Below are positions 4,185 to 63,590 of a DNA stretch of 64,000 bases, piece after piece. A program made the translations under genes and the position numbers. The notes below the pieces were generated by a model that was not told the origin of the DNA, made no database searches, and worked only from the letters and a program-made list of their open reading frames with translations. Within the stretch, counting starts at the first letter, position 1, and the number at the start of each line of letters is the position of its first letter. The stretch spans positions 32,550,001 through 32,614,000 of the forward strand of contig NW_025963802.1 of the NCBI RefSeq assembly GCF_023055435.1. Reading direction: 5' to 3'. Source of the DNA: Haliotis rufescens (lineage: Eukaryota).

Positions 4185-4578
4185 TGATATTCGCAATATA
4201 CTCTCTAAGCTACCATACCATTGTTACAATTCCAGGGATTGTTATACAAGGCAATACCAAACAATAAATACACATATAATACATTACAGTACAATACATT
4301 AAATACAATTATTATCTACGAGGGCAAACATATTGGGGTTCATTAAAATCATATGTGCCCTAGGGTCATATCACTTCATGAAACAACAGTGTATTGTTTC
4401 CGTAATCCGGACGGCATTGTTGACGTCATGTGAATCTTATTGTGACGTGAGGTTGGAATGACGTCACACTAGAAACAAGGTCATAGCTGAAGATTGTTGA
4501 CGTCATTCAACAAATTGTGGTTCCGCTGCTGTTGCGACTTTCTGTCCTTAAAGGTAAACACTAAAATTTGTCTCTGAC

Positions 4579-50322: not shown

Positions 50323-51855
50323 ATGGAAAAAGGACAGATCGTTACCCACGCAAAGAGCGACAGCAGTCGTGTAGTCCTCAACAACAGAGTATATGAGAAT
50401 ATCTCGAACGCAACCGTAGGCACTTCCGCCACTGAAATCGAGAATCATTCCGCTAATGCTTTTACAAAGCGGAAAAACCTTCGCTTTGAGTCAGGTCAAG
50501 ATGCTCTGGTGCCACGACAATGTCGCAATGTGAACCAGCGAGAGCAAATTCTTTTTAACACGCTGGAGAAACATCTGTCCCGTCAGCAACAATCTGCGTT
50601 GCAGAGCCAAGATCACTCCATGCAGAAGTACAGACAGCGCCTCGCCGGATACGAGCGTCTGCGCATGCCCGCGGATGAATCGATAAATGGGAGTTGTGTT
50701 GGCGCGTCGAGTGGCAGCGAGGTTGTGATAGGTAGTGAACGGCGCCCCGGGAGCAAAACAATCTCGGGGATATCAACACATGCGTCGATATCGACGTATG
50801 CTGTGAAACACGGCGACCAATCAATAGCCACCGTTGATGTAAACACAGAAAAGGAGGCTGGGCCTGATGTTGTGACCAACGCTCCTGCTGAGAGAGCGCC
50901 GAGTGTATATAACACAGCCAACTCGACACGTGCCAGTCAGTCTAACGATTTGGGCGGAAGGAGTGTATCACAGGATTTCAGAGGGAAATTACCGAGTCAG
51001 AAAAAGTCGAAGTCGTTCAGGACTTTGGAGTCCGTAGTAAAGAAGATCCACTCGCAAAAGAAGATTGGCCTGAAAATCAGCATGCTCCGAGCACCAGATT
51101 CCTCCGGTTGCACGTCAACAGATTCTAACCTGTTGACTGTGGATGATAACAACATGAGGCCTCGAGCTTACACAGACCCGACATCCGATGGCAAGGGGAA
51201 GATGGCAATTAAGCTTCCCGAGATTACCATTGAAGACTGTTCGGACCCTGAAGACAAGACGAACAGTGAGGTAGAGATGTTCTCCGGTTTCTCCCAACCA
51301 CGCCGCAGGGCGAACACTTGTCCGGAAGAGTTCTTTAACAGACGACGGAAGGGTAGGCCACCAACTCCCCCTCCAACATCCAGGAACAGCAGCCCAAACA
51401 ACAAATTCACTTTCGGGAGCGCCAGGAGCGCCAGCAAAAGTCCCGTGTCATTCGTGCACCACAAACTGAGTAAAGTTTTCGAAGATGGCGGCGAAGCTCC
51501 CAGTGGCGGGAACGTGTCAAAAAAGTCGTCTGCTCGTATGAGCAAGCAGACGAACGTTAACAGACGCAGTTCCTTCAACACCATGGCTAGCCTTAGGGCT
51601 GGTCTTGCCTCCAAATTAACTCTGACAGAATCGGAGGACGAAATGAGCAGAGGCGGTGACATCCCTCCACCCAGGGCGGGAAACGGACCGTTTGCTGTGA
51701 CAAAGCCCGAAGCTTCGAGGGCAAGTGACAATAACAAGATCTCGGGATATAAGTCTCAGGGTCAGGAAGTGCCTGACGTATACTCTGCCAAGGATTGCCG
51801 CTTCTCGCAGAAAATATCACCAACGTTGGACGGGAAACCCCTGCAGGCCTGCTAA
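50323..51855 (+). CDS. Uncharacterised 510-aa Ser/Arg/Lys-rich disordered protein with an N-terminal coiled-coil segment; single coding exon
   Basis: Longest ORF; GC rise relative to flanks; repeat-free; strong acceptor TTTATTTTCAG ending at 50300, just before GTCATGG. Confidence 0.88.
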   Translation: MEKGQIVTHAKSDSSRVVLNNRVYENISNATVGTSATEIENHSANAFTKRKNLRFESGQDALVPRQCRNVNQREQILFNTLEKHLSRQQQSALQSQDHSMQKYRQRLAGYERLRMPADESINGSCVGASSGSEVVIGSERRPGSKTISGISTHASISTYAVKHGDQSIATVDVNTEKEAGPDVVTNAPAERAPSVYNTANSTRASQSNDLGGRSVSQDFRGKLPSQKKSKSFRTLESVVKKIHSQKKIGLKISMLRAPDSSGCTSTDSNLLTVDDNNMRPRAYTDPTSDGKGKMAIKLPEITIEDCSDPEDKTNSEVEMFSGFSQPRRRANTCPEEFFNRRRKGRPPTPPPTSRNSSPNNKFTFGSARSASKSPVSFVHHKLSKVFEDGGEAPSGGNVSKKSSARMSKQTNVNRRSSFNTMASLRAGLASKLTLTESEDEMSRGGDIPPPRAGNGPFAVTKPEASRASDNNKISGYKSQGQEVPDVYSAKDCRFSQKISPTLDGKPLQAC

Positions 51856-53278: not shown

Positions 53279-53750
53279 AATCCTTTGATAACGATCTTGC
53301 CATATTGAGAACAAATATTGTTTGGTTCATCTTTGCCAATGTATTTAAGTGATGGTAAGATGATATGGGTCTTTATCACCATGGCGCTTGTCAATGTAGT
53401 TTAGAATAATAACGGTAATAATGTATTGACCTTTCCTTGTAACGTTAATCGCGGAAATAGTGTACATCCAAATGTCAATAAGCAGTCCCATTAAGTACAA
53501 CGTCGGCTTCTGTCCATGCTATGAGAGAGAAAACAAGCTTATGTTGTCATAACGGCCTGTGTGTCTCATACATGGGCATCGGTTATAACAAGTATTGATT
53601 ATATGACACAGTATATTGGGATGGTGGATGGGAGAGCTGTAGGATTTTCAAGACTGTATAGGTGGCGCGTAAAACACGCGAATTTTGCTAATTTTGTTTT
53701 AAAATAAATGTTTTTGTTCTTCATTTGACTTTTCAAAACTTATACTGCAT

Positions 53751-53991
53751 GTATCAATGCTTGTTTGTTGTTTAACGTCGCACTCGCAATATTCCCGCTA
53801 CATGACGGTGGCCTTTAAATAAGTGAGTCTGGACCAGACAATTCAATGACTGATATCATGAGCATCGATCCACGCAATTGGGATACGATGACATGCATCA
53901 ACCACGTCACCGATCCCGTTAGTCGCCTCTTACGACAAGCATAGTCGCCTCTGGGTTGCTGAAGACCTATTCTACCCCGGATCTTCACGGG
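53751..53991 (-). mobile_element. SINE family D, near full length
   Basis: Starts CCCGTGAAGATCCGGGGTAGAATAGGTCTTC; ends GCGACGTTAAACAACAAACAA; no tRNA A/B boxes. Confidence 0.88.
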
Positions 53992-54136
53992 TAGCGTGTA
54001 AAAATTATAGCTATCACTGTATAAACACACGTTTGTTAAGAACATATTGACCATGTCCACAAATCCTGCATATTGTTTTGTTATATTTAAGTATGGTTTA
54101 TAATAATCTGTCTGTATATGTCAATCCTTTCTACGT

Positions 54137-54405
54137 GGGCACGGGTGGCTCAGTCTTCTGCAATTCGTTGTGCAGTGTTGCGCCCCTTGAGCACGCCAGA
54201 ATCATATGATCGTGGTTTCGAATCCCGAATTGCCGTGATTATAATCTAGGTTTGTCAGCACCATACCCGTCCTCGTGGGTACCACCGAAGTGGTAAACGT
54301 CTAAGACCAGTATCACTTCGGGCTTTCCTCCAAAATCAACACTGACACGCCGTGATATAACTGGAATACTGTTCAAAGCGGCGTTAAACCCAACTCACCC
54401 ACGCA
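54137..54405 (+). mobile_element. SINE family A, diverged copy
   Basis: Homologous to 33863-34145. Confidence 0.88.
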
Positions 54406-55150
54406 CTCTTTTCTCCATTTCATTCAACAAATGTACAGTTACTTTGGATATTGTTCAGATATATTGAACTCGTTCTAACAGGTTTTCCTGATCCAGTTAT
54501 TGTCGCGATACGCTTGAAATAATGCCGATGCGACGTTAAATTGTAACTCACTCACTGATCCAATTATATACATGGATGTTTGACTTAAGCAACTAGACAC
54601 CAAATTTGCTTAAATAATTATAATTTAACTTAATGCATCAGTAAGTTTACGTGAAACCTGCTCACCTAGATGTATAGAATTATGTCCATCGTATTCTTTT
54701 GTTTTCATTAAAAGTAACTTTATGTCTATTTTACTCTGATTTAATCGTCACATCATACACTGTTAACCTTCTTCCTTACATCACTGTACGTTCAATAATG
54801 TATATTCATATGGAATTTTACATCTGTATATTATGATTATCATTGTGTACTGATAAAATAATCTTTGATATATTTTAACATTTTTAACTTACCGTAACTG
54901 ATTCCTATCCAACAGTGTGACCTGTTTCAATACTGTATATAACTTGCAAATGATCAAGGCATTGTATTGTTAATATTCTCTTTATACTCTCAAATGGTTA
55001 TTGTTAATTGTAAATAAATGTTATTGTACAATGTCTTTCAGAATAAATATATAAATTTATACATGATGATTTGTGTTTTTTCTATATATTGGGTGTGTAT
55101 ACACAGTGAACAAGTGGTAAGAAGATTTGAAGCTTGAAATACATTTTCGG

Positions 55151-55308
55151 NNNNNNNNNNNNNNNNNNNNNNNNNNNNNNNNNNNNNNNNNNNNNNNNNN
55201 NNNNNNNNNNNNNNNNNNNNNNNNNNNNNNNNNNNNNNNNNNNNNNNNNNNNNNNNNNNNNNNNNNNNNNNNNNNNNNNNNNNNNNNNNNNNNNNNNNNN
55301 NNNNNNNN
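55151..55308. other. Assembly gap
   Basis: N run. Confidence 1.
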
Positions 55309-55700
55309 TTTTCCGTTTTATAAAATGTATACAAGTAACAAGCAGCTGAGACTGGAAAAAGAACAAATGTTTATCCAATTGATGAAACCCAAATTGAATG
55401 TATTAATAGATTTGTCATTTCAATCGTAAATGTTACACTGTTACTTTACAAATACTGTATATTTTAATTCAAATGTCTCCCTACAATTGTTAAATTACTA
55501 GGTGTCGTCGCTGGAGTGTGTAAATACATTATGACGTCACAGTTGTAATTTATGACGTCATCATAAGTATGACGTCATATTATATGTCTTTGTCATGAGA
55601 CAGCGAAAGTACTATGTCTGAAACTGATATAAAGAAGATGCTGGACTAACGTGGACTTTATTATTTTATTATATATTACATGTACACCGAGTGAACATTT
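55309..55700 (+). mobile_element. Penelope-like element 3' end no. 1 (GIY-YIG C-terminus plus pseudo-LTR)
   Basis: FPFYK...RLEKEQMFIQLMKPKLN parallels FPLYK...FQKEQHFIHKYAPTLN; TGACGTCA-rich 3' region. Confidence 0.75.
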
Positions 55701-55711
55701 ACCTCATTTTT

Positions 55712-56177
55712 GTGTTATTTACTTGATTGTTTGTAGTTGGTGCAATGAAAAGTATATCGGAAAGACAGAACTTAAATTAAAAAGAAGAATGAATCTTCAC
55801 CGTTCACAAATAAAGCAGCCACACAACCGCACGATTCCACTCAGTGAACATTTAGAAGCATGTGGAAACGGCAACTTTTTAGTTTTCCCGCTATATAAGC
55901 TAAATTTTGATCATGAACCTACATTGTTTCAAAAAGAGCAACATTTCATTCATAAATACGCGCCTACGTTAAATGTAAAGGCGTAAGTTATTTGTCTGTT
56001 GTCACCTTGGTATTGTGACGTCATAGTTTCCTAAATGTTATGACGTCACGCAACTATATGTTACTACTTCATGTTCGTTATTCAGTTATGGCCTGATGAG
56101 ACTCGTACGTGGTACGAGTTGAAAGCGCTAGCCTATTAAAACTGTGTTCAATCTTACTCCACTTATTTAATTATTAC

Positions 56178-56180
<3 letters not shown>
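55712..56180 (+). mobile_element. Penelope-like element 3' end no. 2: GIY-YIG endonuclease domain (to stop at 55986) plus pseudo-LTR
   Basis: VIYLIVCSWCNEKYIGKT, R..LHRS, EH, E..FI....P.LN: the PLE-type GIY-YIG with CCHH motif. Confidence 0.9.
56090..56133 (+). ncRNA. Minimal type I hammerhead ribozyme
   Basis: GGC-CTGATGA-GACTCGTAC(GTG)GTACGAGTT-GAAA-GCGC-TA-GCC: complete core, 9-bp stem II, palindromic stem III, 3-bp stem I. Confidence 0.85.
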
Positions 56181-56208
<28 letters not shown>

Positions 56209-56534
56209 CTTCTTAATTCCCATTTGATATTTGTAACATAATATTCAACAGTCAGCAATGACTGAATATTCTTATAATATGCAAGTCGTTTTGAATCATT
56301 GATGTTACTAAAAATAATTGTTTTCCACAATCGTCTAATCTATGTCTGAACATCGACAGAAAATGTGAAATATCTGTTTCTGGTGTGCACTGCTAAGTTC
56401 AGATCAATATCATTGTATGCTCTCAATATCCTACACGCATAAGCTGAAAAGACATGACATGGGTTGAGTGTTACTATATCAGGCTTGCTCTGCTCTACAA
56501 TATGTGATGCACTTTTTCTGTACCTCGATTTGCC

Positions 56535-56910
56535 GGAATATTACTGGAACATTGTCGGAATATTGCTGGAATATTGCTGGAATATGGTTGGAATATTGCT
56601 GGAATATGGTTGGAATATTGCTGGAATATTGCTGGTATATTGCCGGAATATTGCTGGAATATTGCTGAAATATTGCTGGAATATTGCTGGAATATTGTTG
56701 GAATATTGCTGGAATATTGCTGAAATATTGCTGGAATATTGCTGGAATATTGTTGGAATATTGCTGGAATATTGCTGGAATATTGCTGGAATATTGCTGG
56801 AATATTGCTGGAATATTGCTGGAATATTGTTGGAATATTGCTGGAATATTGTTGGAATATTGCCGGAATATTGCTGGAATATTTCCGGAATATTGCTGGA
56901 ATATTGCTAA
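56535..56910. repeat. 11-bp tandem repeat (GGAATATTGCT)n
   Basis: ~34 copies; unit equals part of the SINE tail. Confidence 0.97.
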
Positions 56911-57639
56911 AACCCTCTTAATTAATAATTAGAAATACATGATTTTTATTATTCCACACATCCGGAACACCATGTAAGAACGATGTGTTCTTACATATAC
57001 TGCCAGCACCGGGTGTTCATTGTGTGACGTTTGTCCTTGTAATTGGTTTTTCTTTAACTTCCAAATTATACACGAGACGTTCGTGAAGAAGCTTTAAAAA
57101 AAGATAGAATGAATTGTGTATGTACAAGGCTCGTGTCTTCTTAAATAATGTCCACTAAACCGTATAAAACAGAAGGAAACCACAATACCAATGCATCATG
57201 GTGCAATACCAATGTCACCAGGTGTTCGTGAGCGTATGACAAAGTGTCCATTATACACTCGCCTCGTCTCATTCGAATAGGACCTCGACCGGCACTGACA
57301 AGAATCCATATTGGAACCAGCTTCGTGTACATGACAATCACATGACATAACACAAGGCGGTTGCCAATCTTATATAACTATTCAAGTTGCTGTATGCCTA
57401 ATTTCTAGTATGCAGAGAAAACGTCCGTCATGGTACATCGTATGCGGAAGGATCTGGCGTTAGGGTCACAATGGAGCTTGAAAACCATATGTTTCTCCAA
57501 AGTCAAACTTTACTGTTTTTTGTTTAAATTTTGGTGACCAATCATAGAAAAAAGGGTTTATATCGGTCAAATCTTTGTTTATTGCAAAACTCAGCAATAT
57601 GACACCGTTTTGTGAGAAACGTTAAAGAGATTCTAATCT

Positions 57640-57985
57640 ACCTCACTCACTCACCATTCTTCATTTTCACAAACATCACCCGCCATACTCACTCACTCGA
57701 TAACGCATTCATTCACCCAACTACCTATCGAAAACCGCTCGCTCACTCACTCGATCACGCATTCTCACTCAACTATCCATCGAAAACCGCTCACTCACTC
57801 ACCCACTTATTCACTCACTCACTCGATCACGCATTCACTCACCCAACTATTCATCGAAAACCGCTCACTCACTCACCCACCCACTTATTCACTCACTCAC
57901 TCGATCACGCATTCACTCACCCAACTACCCATCGAAAACCGCTAACTCATCCACTTATTTACTCACTCACTCGCTCACTCCTCAC
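57640..57985. repeat. (ACTC)n-rich compound repeat with recurring CGATCACGCATTC and ATCGAAAACCGCT blocks
   Basis: Four block repeats visible. Confidence 0.85.
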
Positions 57986-58719
57986 TGTGAGATGAGCAAG
58001 CAACAAACATATCCTCTCAACATATGCTTCCAAGATGCTGCGTGCCCGTGAATGTCATGGCATAAAATGTAATGCTATAGGCCTTTCCAGACACTTCCGT
58101 GTGTACACTTCTGATGAAGGATCCCATCATTGTGACATTAATTGGGAAGAAAGACAATTCGGGCTCATTAACCGGCAATCATCTAGAATCATTCTAAGAC
58201 GGTTTCTATTTAATGCCTTCCGACTTCCTTGCAAACCTTCCGACAACCTTGTTGATTTTAAGACTTTCTTTTTTATCGGAGACACATAAACGCCAAGAAA
58301 CGGATAAAGCATTTATTAAGCACGGAAATAGAACTTCGTCCTGTATCATATAACCTTATGGATATTTAAATAATACCATCCCTTGGCCTCACTGAATTTA
58401 CACCAACAAGTCTATGAAGGTAGAATGATTCAGGAATTTGATGGACTCATAGAATTCCCGATGGAGATGCGGGATAACTGATATGCTTGTTGTGGGCAGC
58501 CTCATTAAGGAAGTTAGAGAATGATCGATGTGTCAGTGGGAGCATATACTTTGATGCTGGAAACCAGCCTCCTTGAATGGTAGCCTCACCCAAAGCAGTT
58601 TGTATTTTATTTTGACATGACATTACTGCTTTTGCTTTTACGATTTAAATTCGTCTTGGTTTTGAATTACATTAGTTGAACCCTTCCTGTGCTGATAGAT
58701 ACACGATGTTGAACAGAAA

Positions 58720-61880: not shown

Positions 61881-63497
61881 TTCAATTCGGTTTATTTTGT
61901 AAGTGTTGGCCATCGGCCCATAGTTACATTTGTACTACAATGGACGTGATGTACACAGCTGTTATTGTTGCGACAATAATGTACTACGAAGTGACATGGC
62001 TTGATAGATATAGATGGCTAGACGTTCAATTAATTTACAATCAGTTGTAGACATAATGATATTAAATATTTGTTTGGTCGGATATTCACAATAGTTTTGT
62101 GGTAAGTGATCCCCCCCGTAGCTTGTTATAACCGGAACAAACTAACAAAAAATGATACTCGTCCTCCACATCCAGCATTACAAACACAACATAGTCTCTG
62201 TTACGTGGGACATCAGCGTATCTCCCAGTTTCAACATACAGCTGATGCGAAAAACATCTAAACCGAGCTAGCGCCACTCTCAATTACTGACGGTCACACA
62301 GCTAAGATACAACTCTGTACCAAACGATACCTTGAATAGAGAATAAGAGAAAGATTTACTATCCTTGTCCAGAAGACTATGCCAATCCTGTTCATGACTA
62401 CATTTCAGACGCGACATAAATTCTGTCAAAAACGAATGAGGATGACTTATTCACTGGTTTTCCAATACAGAGCCAAAACCCAAACTGAACATTAAAGATT
62501 TTCATTTTGAGACCCAATTAATTTTACCATTACTTTCTGCCTGAAGCATCATATAATAACATTTCTTTGGGAAGCGACAATCGGACATACTCAATAACCT
62601 TATCCAATAACCAATACCTCTTTTGTATGCGGGGGCACGGGTGGCCCAGTCGTCTAGGGCGCCGCGATACGCTGTGCAGAGTTGCGTCCCTTGGGCACGC
62701 CAGAAACCTATGATTGTGGATCACGGTTCGCCCCGATTATGTTTCTAGATTTCTAGGTTTGTCAGCACCATACCCGTGCTCGTGGGTTTCATCGAAGTGG
62801 TAAACGTCTGAGACCTGCATCAATTGGGGCTTTCCTCCCACATTAAGCTGACATGCCGTGATATAACTGGAGTACTGTTAAAAACGGCGTTAAACCCAAC
62901 TCATTCACTCACTCTTTTGTATGCATAAAGATATAATGGATACCGCCCACATTCACCTCCAACCATATTGTTTGGTGTTGACGATTTGACACCTAGAAAG
63001 TGCTTGCATGCCAATGTATGTATAGTTTCTATTTCGTTATTCTGGTGGAGACCACAGACTTCGGAACCATAGAGCAAAATTGGGACTACTTTCATATCAA
63101 ATGTTTTAAAATATAAGTCATGTCGAAGAGGATGTAATTTTATCAATGACTTTAAAATTCCAAACATTGCTTTTTCCCCCTGCAAACCAGCATTAGAGAA
63201 ATGACTTGACCAGGACAGGCTTCTCGTAAAAGTAACGCCCAAATATTTATAGGAAGACACACTCTCCAACTTTAGACATTTATAGTACCAAATCTCTTTT
63301 CTTGACAACACTCTACCTTTCTTAAAAACAACCACCTTGGTTTTATCCAAATTCACATCTAGATCATAATCATTACAATACTTTTCTAGAACATCAATAC
63401 GCTTCTGAAGTCCACCTATAGTATCTGCGATTAAAATAATATCGTCTGCAAATGATAATAGGAGTATATCTGTAATATCAGGATGAAGTTGATACAG
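61778..63497 (-). mobile_element. 5'-truncated LINE (RTEX-like): RT C-terminal half, 3' UTR and (TAC)n(TAA)n tail
   Basis: FADD, N..KTKVVVF, YKYLG, RFR..HQLYVETGRY, VEDEYHFLLVC; AATAAA just before the tail. Confidence 0.9.
62631..62911 (+). mobile_element. SINE family A inserted into the LINE
   Basis: Perfect 13-bp TSD CTCTTTTGTATGC at 62618-62630 and 62912-62924. Confidence 0.95.
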
Positions 63498-63590
63498 AAT
63501 TGGGATCGATGACATGCAACAACCACGTCAGCGAGCCTGACCACCCGATCGCCTTTAACTACAAGCATAGTCGCCTTTTACTGCAAGCAT
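63498..63590 (-). mobile_element. SINE family D fragment
   Basis: GAGCCTGACCACCCGATC and TAGTCGCC motifs. Confidence 0.7.

Follow-up and report, generated by a model that had tools for sequence, protein, structure and literature searches.

Results

Two Penelope-like tails on the plus strand

The window, by which we mean the whole 64-kb stretch of abalone DNA that was analysed, harbors the 3' ends of two Penelope-like elements (PLEs), here termed family A and family B, on the plus strand downstream of a host open reading frame (ORF) of 510 amino acids. The features of the locus are:

50323..51855, plus strand: neighbouring host ORF of 510 amino acids (open frame)
55309..55713, plus strand: family B 3' end, with the C-terminus of a GIY-YIG endonuclease (55310-55429), three TGACGTCA sites (55532, 55553, 55570) and a tail to 55713 (endonuclease profile, E 1.5e-6)
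55591..55626, plus strand: 3' half of the family B hammerhead, with a stem II remnant, GAAA (55605-08), the palindrome AGUACU (55608-13), A17 (55614) and AACUG (55622-26) (sequence)
55714..55986, plus strand: C-terminal part of the family A GIY-YIG endonuclease, 5'-truncated, with CCHH residues (Pfam PF01541, E 7e-8)
55987..56177, plus strand: family A 3' untranslated tail, with two TGACGTCA sites (56016, 56041), then the hammerhead, whose predicted cut is followed by a further 47 nt (sequence)
56083..56144, plus strand: putative distal continuation of stem I, in which CAGUU (56083-87) would pair with AACUG (56140-44) beyond an asymmetric internal loop (predicted fold)
56090..56133, plus strand: type I hammerhead motif (sequence, descriptor scan, predicted fold)
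56178..56208, no strand assigned: (TA)n microsatellite adjoining the family A 3' end (sequence; TA targets are described in PMC8557442)

The family A element spans about 55713-56177 (~465 bases) and is followed by the TA repeat, which is likely its insertion target, and then by an 11-base satellite. The satellite, a tandem array of the GCTGGAATATT type, extends over 56530-56910, 350 bases behind the element. Elsewhere in the window, the minus strand carries a 208-aa open frame at 62901-63527 that we take to resemble a fragment of a non-LTR reverse transcriptase, with a FADD motif.

The endonuclease fragment of family A ends in a TAA stop codon at 55984-86, 103 nt before position 56090, in agreement with the distance of about 105 nt given in an earlier first-pass annotation of the sequence. 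Its CCHH residues (C7, C10, H29 and H46 of the fragment) are invariant in an alignment with relatives, and it shares 76% and 67% identity with the C-termini of P0001 and P0002, respectively, two proteins that combine a full reverse transcriptase (RT) with a C-terminal GIY-YIG domain. P0001 and P0002 also carry GxKF, DKG and a CX4CxxC linker; this part of the protein, including the RT, is absent from the window, where (with a 158-base gap at 55151-55308) the search for the family A RT gave no match to either protein below E 0.26. The hammerhead unit is not repeated within 53500-58000 or in the remainder of the window, and the descriptor scan revealed no second intact hammerhead there. With neither an RT nor a second intact hammerhead in the window, the locus is thus a solo, 5'-truncated 3' end and not a demonstrated pseudo-LTR, the designation that it had initially received; nor does the window outside the gap contain a truncated copy in tandem before a full-length copy, the arrangement that strictly characterizes a pseudo-LTR as described in PMC8557442.

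Family B, which the first-pass annotation had missed, runs from the assembly gap to position 55713 and adjoins family A directly. An open frame at 55633-55986 crosses this boundary, its first 27 codons belonging to the tail of family B. In other copies of family A, the element's own endonuclease coding sequence continues upstream of 55713, and in other copies of family B the loose ends of contigs behind 55713 go on with (AT)n. Since the copies diverge at 55713 in these two ways, two elements meet at this position. The family B hammerhead in the window lacks the core and the 5' arm, and a CUA triplet is again present; in other family B copies a CUGAAGA core precedes 55591, as seen in the loose ends of 11 contigs from run X1 and 13 from run X13, and in X1 the depth at 55576-87 drops to 26, compared to thousands beside it. 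A third, inverted GIY-YIG remnant was suspected at 55150-54800 and rejected, there being no endonuclease profile match at E values up to 10.

By the clade features given in PMC8557442, family A would belong to Neptune or Nematis and not to Penelope/Poseidon, and the TA-repeat flank leads us to favour Neptune over Nematis. Naiad, which has an N-terminal endonuclease, was ruled out by the C-terminal position of this domain in the relatives, and Hydra, which has no CCHH, by the presence of CCHH in the endonuclease.

A type I hammerhead with a 6-nt palindrome

Core, stems, GAAA, palindrome and cleavage triplet were all read where the first-pass annotation had placed an intact hammerhead, and when the two strands of the 64-kb window were scanned with a hammerhead descriptor, this motif was the sole match. 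As read from the sequence, stem I consists of 3 bp (GGC 56090-92 with GCC 56131-33). It encloses the core CTGATGA (56093-99; CUGAUGA in RNA), a stem II of 9 bp (56100-08 with 56112-20) that has a GUG loop and a G56100-U56120 pair at its base, GAAA (56121-24), the palindrome AGCGCT (AGCGCU in RNA; 56124-29) and A17 at 56130. Cleavage is predicted between 56130 and 56131, after CUA. The CUGANGA core, GAAA and NUH occur in type I order, together with stems I and II, and the palindromic positions 15.1 to 16.1 read AGCGCU, with a self-duplex energy of -8.3 kcal/mol. The motif departs from a strict minimal hammerhead (min-HHR) in that the helix III palindrome has 6 nt, not 4 nt, no extra base separates positions 9 and 10.1, and G-U replaces G10.1-C11.1. 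It had been called minimal; in the strict sense of that word, the 6-nt palindrome assigns it instead to a variant class of PMC4209133, recorded there in flies, rotifers, shrimp and mosquitoes.

Folding of the 44-nt hammerhead gave z = -2.70 (equally good folds in 3/200 shuffles), and the minimum-energy fold of the monomer is not the active fold. The flank motif CAGUU plus AACUG, which could extend stem I, occurs in both families (for family B, in other copies). Taken alone, the distal extension of the window motif was not significant (p = 0.14); significance was reached in three of ten motifs (L124, L128, L129), and a comparison of own with swapped flanks gave p = 0.013. The extension is thereby weakly supported, and a closing stem I has already been drawn for PLE hammerheads (PMC4209133).

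Copies and variation in sequencing runs

Four public runs were mapped on 55309-56165, with a method whose depth does not equal copy number; the assignment of X15 to RNA is a guess, and this run may contain DNA. The small-RNA run X21 placed no reads on the stretch, which is uninformative. From two DNA-like runs, 923 and 2513 contigs were placed on this stretch, which is thus a many-copy repeat. Among the variants listed, the window copy of family A differs from nearly all of the depth at five positions in about 465 bases (55967, 55997, 55998, 56051, 56075), none of them in the hammerhead. At this divergence of about 1%, the absence of core changes in family A is no test of selection. Within stem II, G56105A, which breaks a pair, reaches 14% and 8% of depth in two runs, and no compensating change at a depth of at least 5% was found among the variants listed.

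In both families, the position four bases behind the cut is variable: 56134 in 62% and 26% of depth in family A, and 55618 in 48% and 52% of depth in family B. The common variants at these positions add a fourth pair to stem I in the respective family.

Rarer changes were also observed. A56122G accompanied by a deletion of 7 bases from stem II (56105-56122) occurs in one or two contigs per run in X13 and X15; the deletion would shorten the stem to 5 bp and give it a loop of 4 nt, and perhaps marks a subfamily or a decayed copy. Three listed joints, each from single contigs at low depth (X1, X13), terminate at 56091, shortly upstream of the core, and one of these returns from 56165, which would give a short hammerhead tandem.

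Hammerheads in related elements

A scan requiring the palindrome detected a hammerhead downstream of the coding match in 9 of 19 related loci, a count from which duplicated loci were left out; several of the other ten loci are on short contigs. Among the seven closest loci with a complete endonuclease match, five have a hammerhead, and the two misses comprise just 158 and 269 bases of downstream sequence. When the helix III condition was dropped, all five distinct matches in 3' tails were palindromic, and two matches elsewhere were not. Seven Neptune-type tails (family A, family B, L121, L124, L125, L128 and L129) carry seven different 6-nt palindromes. Among the related loci, L121 combines a basal G-U pair in stem II with A17 and the lack of an extra base, the L125 hammerhead has A17, and the L132 hammerhead likewise has the G-U pair.

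A scan of metagenomes returned three loci, none of them a close member of the family. In one Neptune-type tail (L129:2161-2196), the hammerhead has a U3-A8 core variant and the palindrome ACAUGU. Most of the PLE loci obtained from genome and metagenome contigs, among them PLEs with long RT frames (L124-L138), lie in records that are annotated as bacterial assemblies, likely as a result of animal contamination.

Discussion

Predicted cleavage as paired copies

Two copies of the motif folded as a double hammerhead have a predicted energy of -40.3 kcal/mol, compared to -34.2 kcal/mol for a pair of monomers; within one monomer, helix III closes at a cost of 5.6 kcal/mol. Left unconstrained, the two strands adopt another structure in which the stems II are swapped, better by 0.6 kcal/mol with flanks and by 2.8 kcal/mol without them. 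The favourable dimer folding, itself a calculated result, would fit the model of dimer cleavage in PMC4209133, whereby a precursor is processed into unit-length RNA by its tandem motifs; the test case described there showed no activity as a monomer and low activity as a dimer, PLE hammerheads being slow even in dimeric form.

We consider it highly probable that the motif is the type I hammerhead of a many-copy PLE, likely of the Neptune clade, located in the 3' tail of a copy that lacks its 5' part, and that it is predicted to cut only as paired copies joined through AGCGCU. A type I PLE hammerhead with a palindromic helix III suited to dimers is also what had been proposed initially, and the GIY-YIG context, the relatives and the dimer energies bear this out. 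According to the model of PMC4209133, a transcript of tandem full-length family A members would hold two motifs, whose AGCGCU palindromes would form one 6-bp helix III as the stem I arms swap partners; each core would then cut after CUA, and unit-length RNA would be freed for retrotransposition. To give the copy in the window, reverse transcription would have come to a halt about 465 bases in from the 3' end, followed by insertion at the TA tail of the family B fragment. With no intact partner nearby, this copy is likely a silent passenger. The two neighbouring families differ in their palindromes: AGUACU has a self-pairing energy of -4.8 kcal/mol, and AGCGCU with AGUACU yields -0.4 kcal/mol. 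Such a pair of neighbours offers a useful handle on whether the palindrome makes dimer cleavage family-specific.

It is also conceivable that the family A hammerhead is a relic, in which the fold has been inherited and cleavage lost (by way of the G-U pair at the base of stem II, A17 and the 3-bp stem I), the element spreading without cutting. The stem II mismatch variant, found at 8-14% of depth with no compensation, points in this direction, as does the competing two-strand fold, which is as good as the double hammerhead or better. Naiad elements, moreover, spread without canonical hammerheads as described in PMC8557442, whose authors ask whether hammerheads only parasitise PLEs. However, all core letters are intact in the window copy, G-U and A17 recur in published examples as well as in those fetched here, and the seven different palindromes of the seven Neptune-type tails would each have needed paired changes. 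We regard loss of cleavage as unlikely.

The neighbouring ORF and read-through transcripts

Cleavage of read-through RNA from the 510-aa gene had been suggested in the first-pass annotation, and the geometry on which the suggestion was based is correct: the hammerhead is in sense orientation to the ORF, whose stop lies 4275 nt before 56130 (~4.2 kb in the original estimate). The encoded protein is 99% identical over its whole length to P0007, an uncharacterised protein of Haliotis cracherodii; a Pfam search with it returned no family, and homologues were found just in Haliotis, along with one protein at 25% identity. If the motif had been taken up by the host, it might cut read-through or long 3'-UTR transcripts of this gene as a monomer or, given that the family is abundant and partners may therefore exist, in trans. 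The stretch between the ORF stop and the motif, however, contains four AATAAA (53703, 55013, 55042, 55809) and two ATTAAA, closure of helix III is costly for the monomer, and the window offers no intact partner; the hammerhead of family B has no core, and its palindrome would not pair with AGCGCU. In addition, the window copy is about 1% from the family majority, so that no separate conservation is visible. A role in the processing of host transcripts is accordingly very improbable, and the cutting of 510-aa gene RNA proposed earlier finds no support.

Chance expectation

In 200 dinucleotide shuffles, loose matches to the descriptor occurred at a mean of 0.04 per window, matches with a palindromic helix III and a stem II of at least 4 bp at 0.005, and matches with a 9-bp stem II not at all. 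Searches against Rfam gave no match in the whole window at the gathering score, and no hammerhead family matched in 55500-56500 at E values up to 10; we infer that the Rfam models miss reduced hammerheads of this type. A pattern of the core motifs alone was found at 120 viral loci, none of which (0/120) has the stems, indicating that core motifs alone mean little; the viral contigs yielded no protein relative. That the motif is a chance hairpin flanked by short sequences mimicking a hammerhead, as the missing Rfam match, the stemless viral loci and the fold of the 111-nt region around the motif (no better than shuffles, z = 0.40) might suggest, has a negligible probability in view of the 0.005 palindromic matches expected per window, the position of the motif at the right place in a PLE tail and the same architecture in neighbouring family B and in relatives, a recurrence by which a chance origin is in effect refuted.

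Clusters of TGACGTCA

Of the 11 copies of TGACGTCA (which we take to be a 'CRE-like' site) in the window, five are found in the two short PLE tails, before the hammerheads (55532-55577 and 56016-56048). Like family B itself, the clusters in these tails had gone unnoticed in the first-pass annotation. Among 14 tails tested, four show enrichment of the half-site ACGTCA upstream of the hammerhead (family A, family B, L124 and L125; p about 0.001 each), two more have a single copy and the remaining eight have none. A third cluster in the window comprises three TGACGTCA about 38 bases apart (4421-4505), and no endonuclease or hammerhead signal was found near it. In light of this cluster without a PLE signal and of the eight tails without sites, TGACGTCA clusters are not confined to the tails of PLEs. 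A limited literature search that included TGACGTCA returned no report of the motif.

PLE pseudo-LTRs are described as holding a promoter (PMC6765202; PMC2377424). By analogy, our guess is that the TGACGTCA clusters could be promoter sites of the pseudo-LTR. More broadly, the 3' ends of Neptune-type elements might constitute a promoter-plus-ribozyme module, in which a CRE-like TGACGTCA cluster would drive the promoter and a bulge-less A17 hammerhead would use its 6-nt palindrome as a family code, a proposal that we hold to be doubtful. Were it true, co-resident families (AGCGCU, AGUACU) would cut just their own RNA, and the numerous solo ends, if transcribed, could cleave each other in trans.

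Comparison with known hammerheads and PLEs

Non-LTR retrozymes of animals (PMC7229834; bioRxiv 10.64898/2026.07.22.740005), which these sources propose to descend from PLE pseudo-LTRs, share with the locus a type I hammerhead in an animal genomic repeat. In contrast to retrozymes, described as tandem non-coding units of ~300 bases with canonical hammerheads, the window contains a single copy associated with endonuclease coding sequence; a retrozyme was ruled out, since the 64 kb hold one intact motif and the window no repeat of the unit.

With Neptune and Nematis elements as described in PMC8557442, family A has in common the C-terminal GIY-YIG endonuclease with CCHH, the TA-repeat flank and strong 5' truncation, and its nearest full-length relatives also share the CX2-5CxxC linker, DKG and GxKF. 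The locus differs in comprising just the last ~465 bases of an element, with no RT and no partial tandem, and in abutting the tail of another family. As regards the in vivo role of PLE hammerheads, a question considered in PMC8557442, a solo truncated copy makes it no easier to test than do the elements already known.

The closest counterparts are the PLE pseudo-LTR hammerheads of PMC4209133, with which the motif shares the type I order, the CUGANGA, GAAA and NUH elements, a short stem I, a long stem II and a position downstream of the GIY-YIG stop codon in an element truncated at its 5' end. Fig. S3 of that work provides 56 rows for comparison, in which our counts were made by eye. The CUA triplet and the G-U pair at the base of stem II, both singled out at first as unusual, turn out to be shared: A17 occurs in six of the 56 rows and G-U in place of G10.1-C11.1 in eight, and both recur in the related loci examined here. 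In particular, the row for a PLE of the shrimp Marsupenaeus japonicus has the same AGCGCU and CUA, a 3-nt loop II and, like one other row (2/56), no extra base behind A9. This absence is associated with A17 across the 56 published rows (Fisher p = 0.01, a value that rests on two rows and ignores kinship), and we treat the association as a probable lineage trait. Further hammerhead variants may be covered by Lunse et al. 2017, as cited in a review (PMC6765202).

The arrangement of a hammerhead in a PLE tail is thus already described, and CUA and G-U are already published. The length of stem II, likewise noted at the outset as less usual, does stand out: at 9 bp it exceeds the longest stem II in Fig. 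S3 (8 bp), and this ninth base pair is the sole feature of the motif beyond the 56 rows. The host differs as well, being an abalone here, compared to Lottia and Crassostrea in the mollusc rows of the figure. With this locus, a class that was described in 2014 from 40 animal species gains one family, found in an abalone-type genome.
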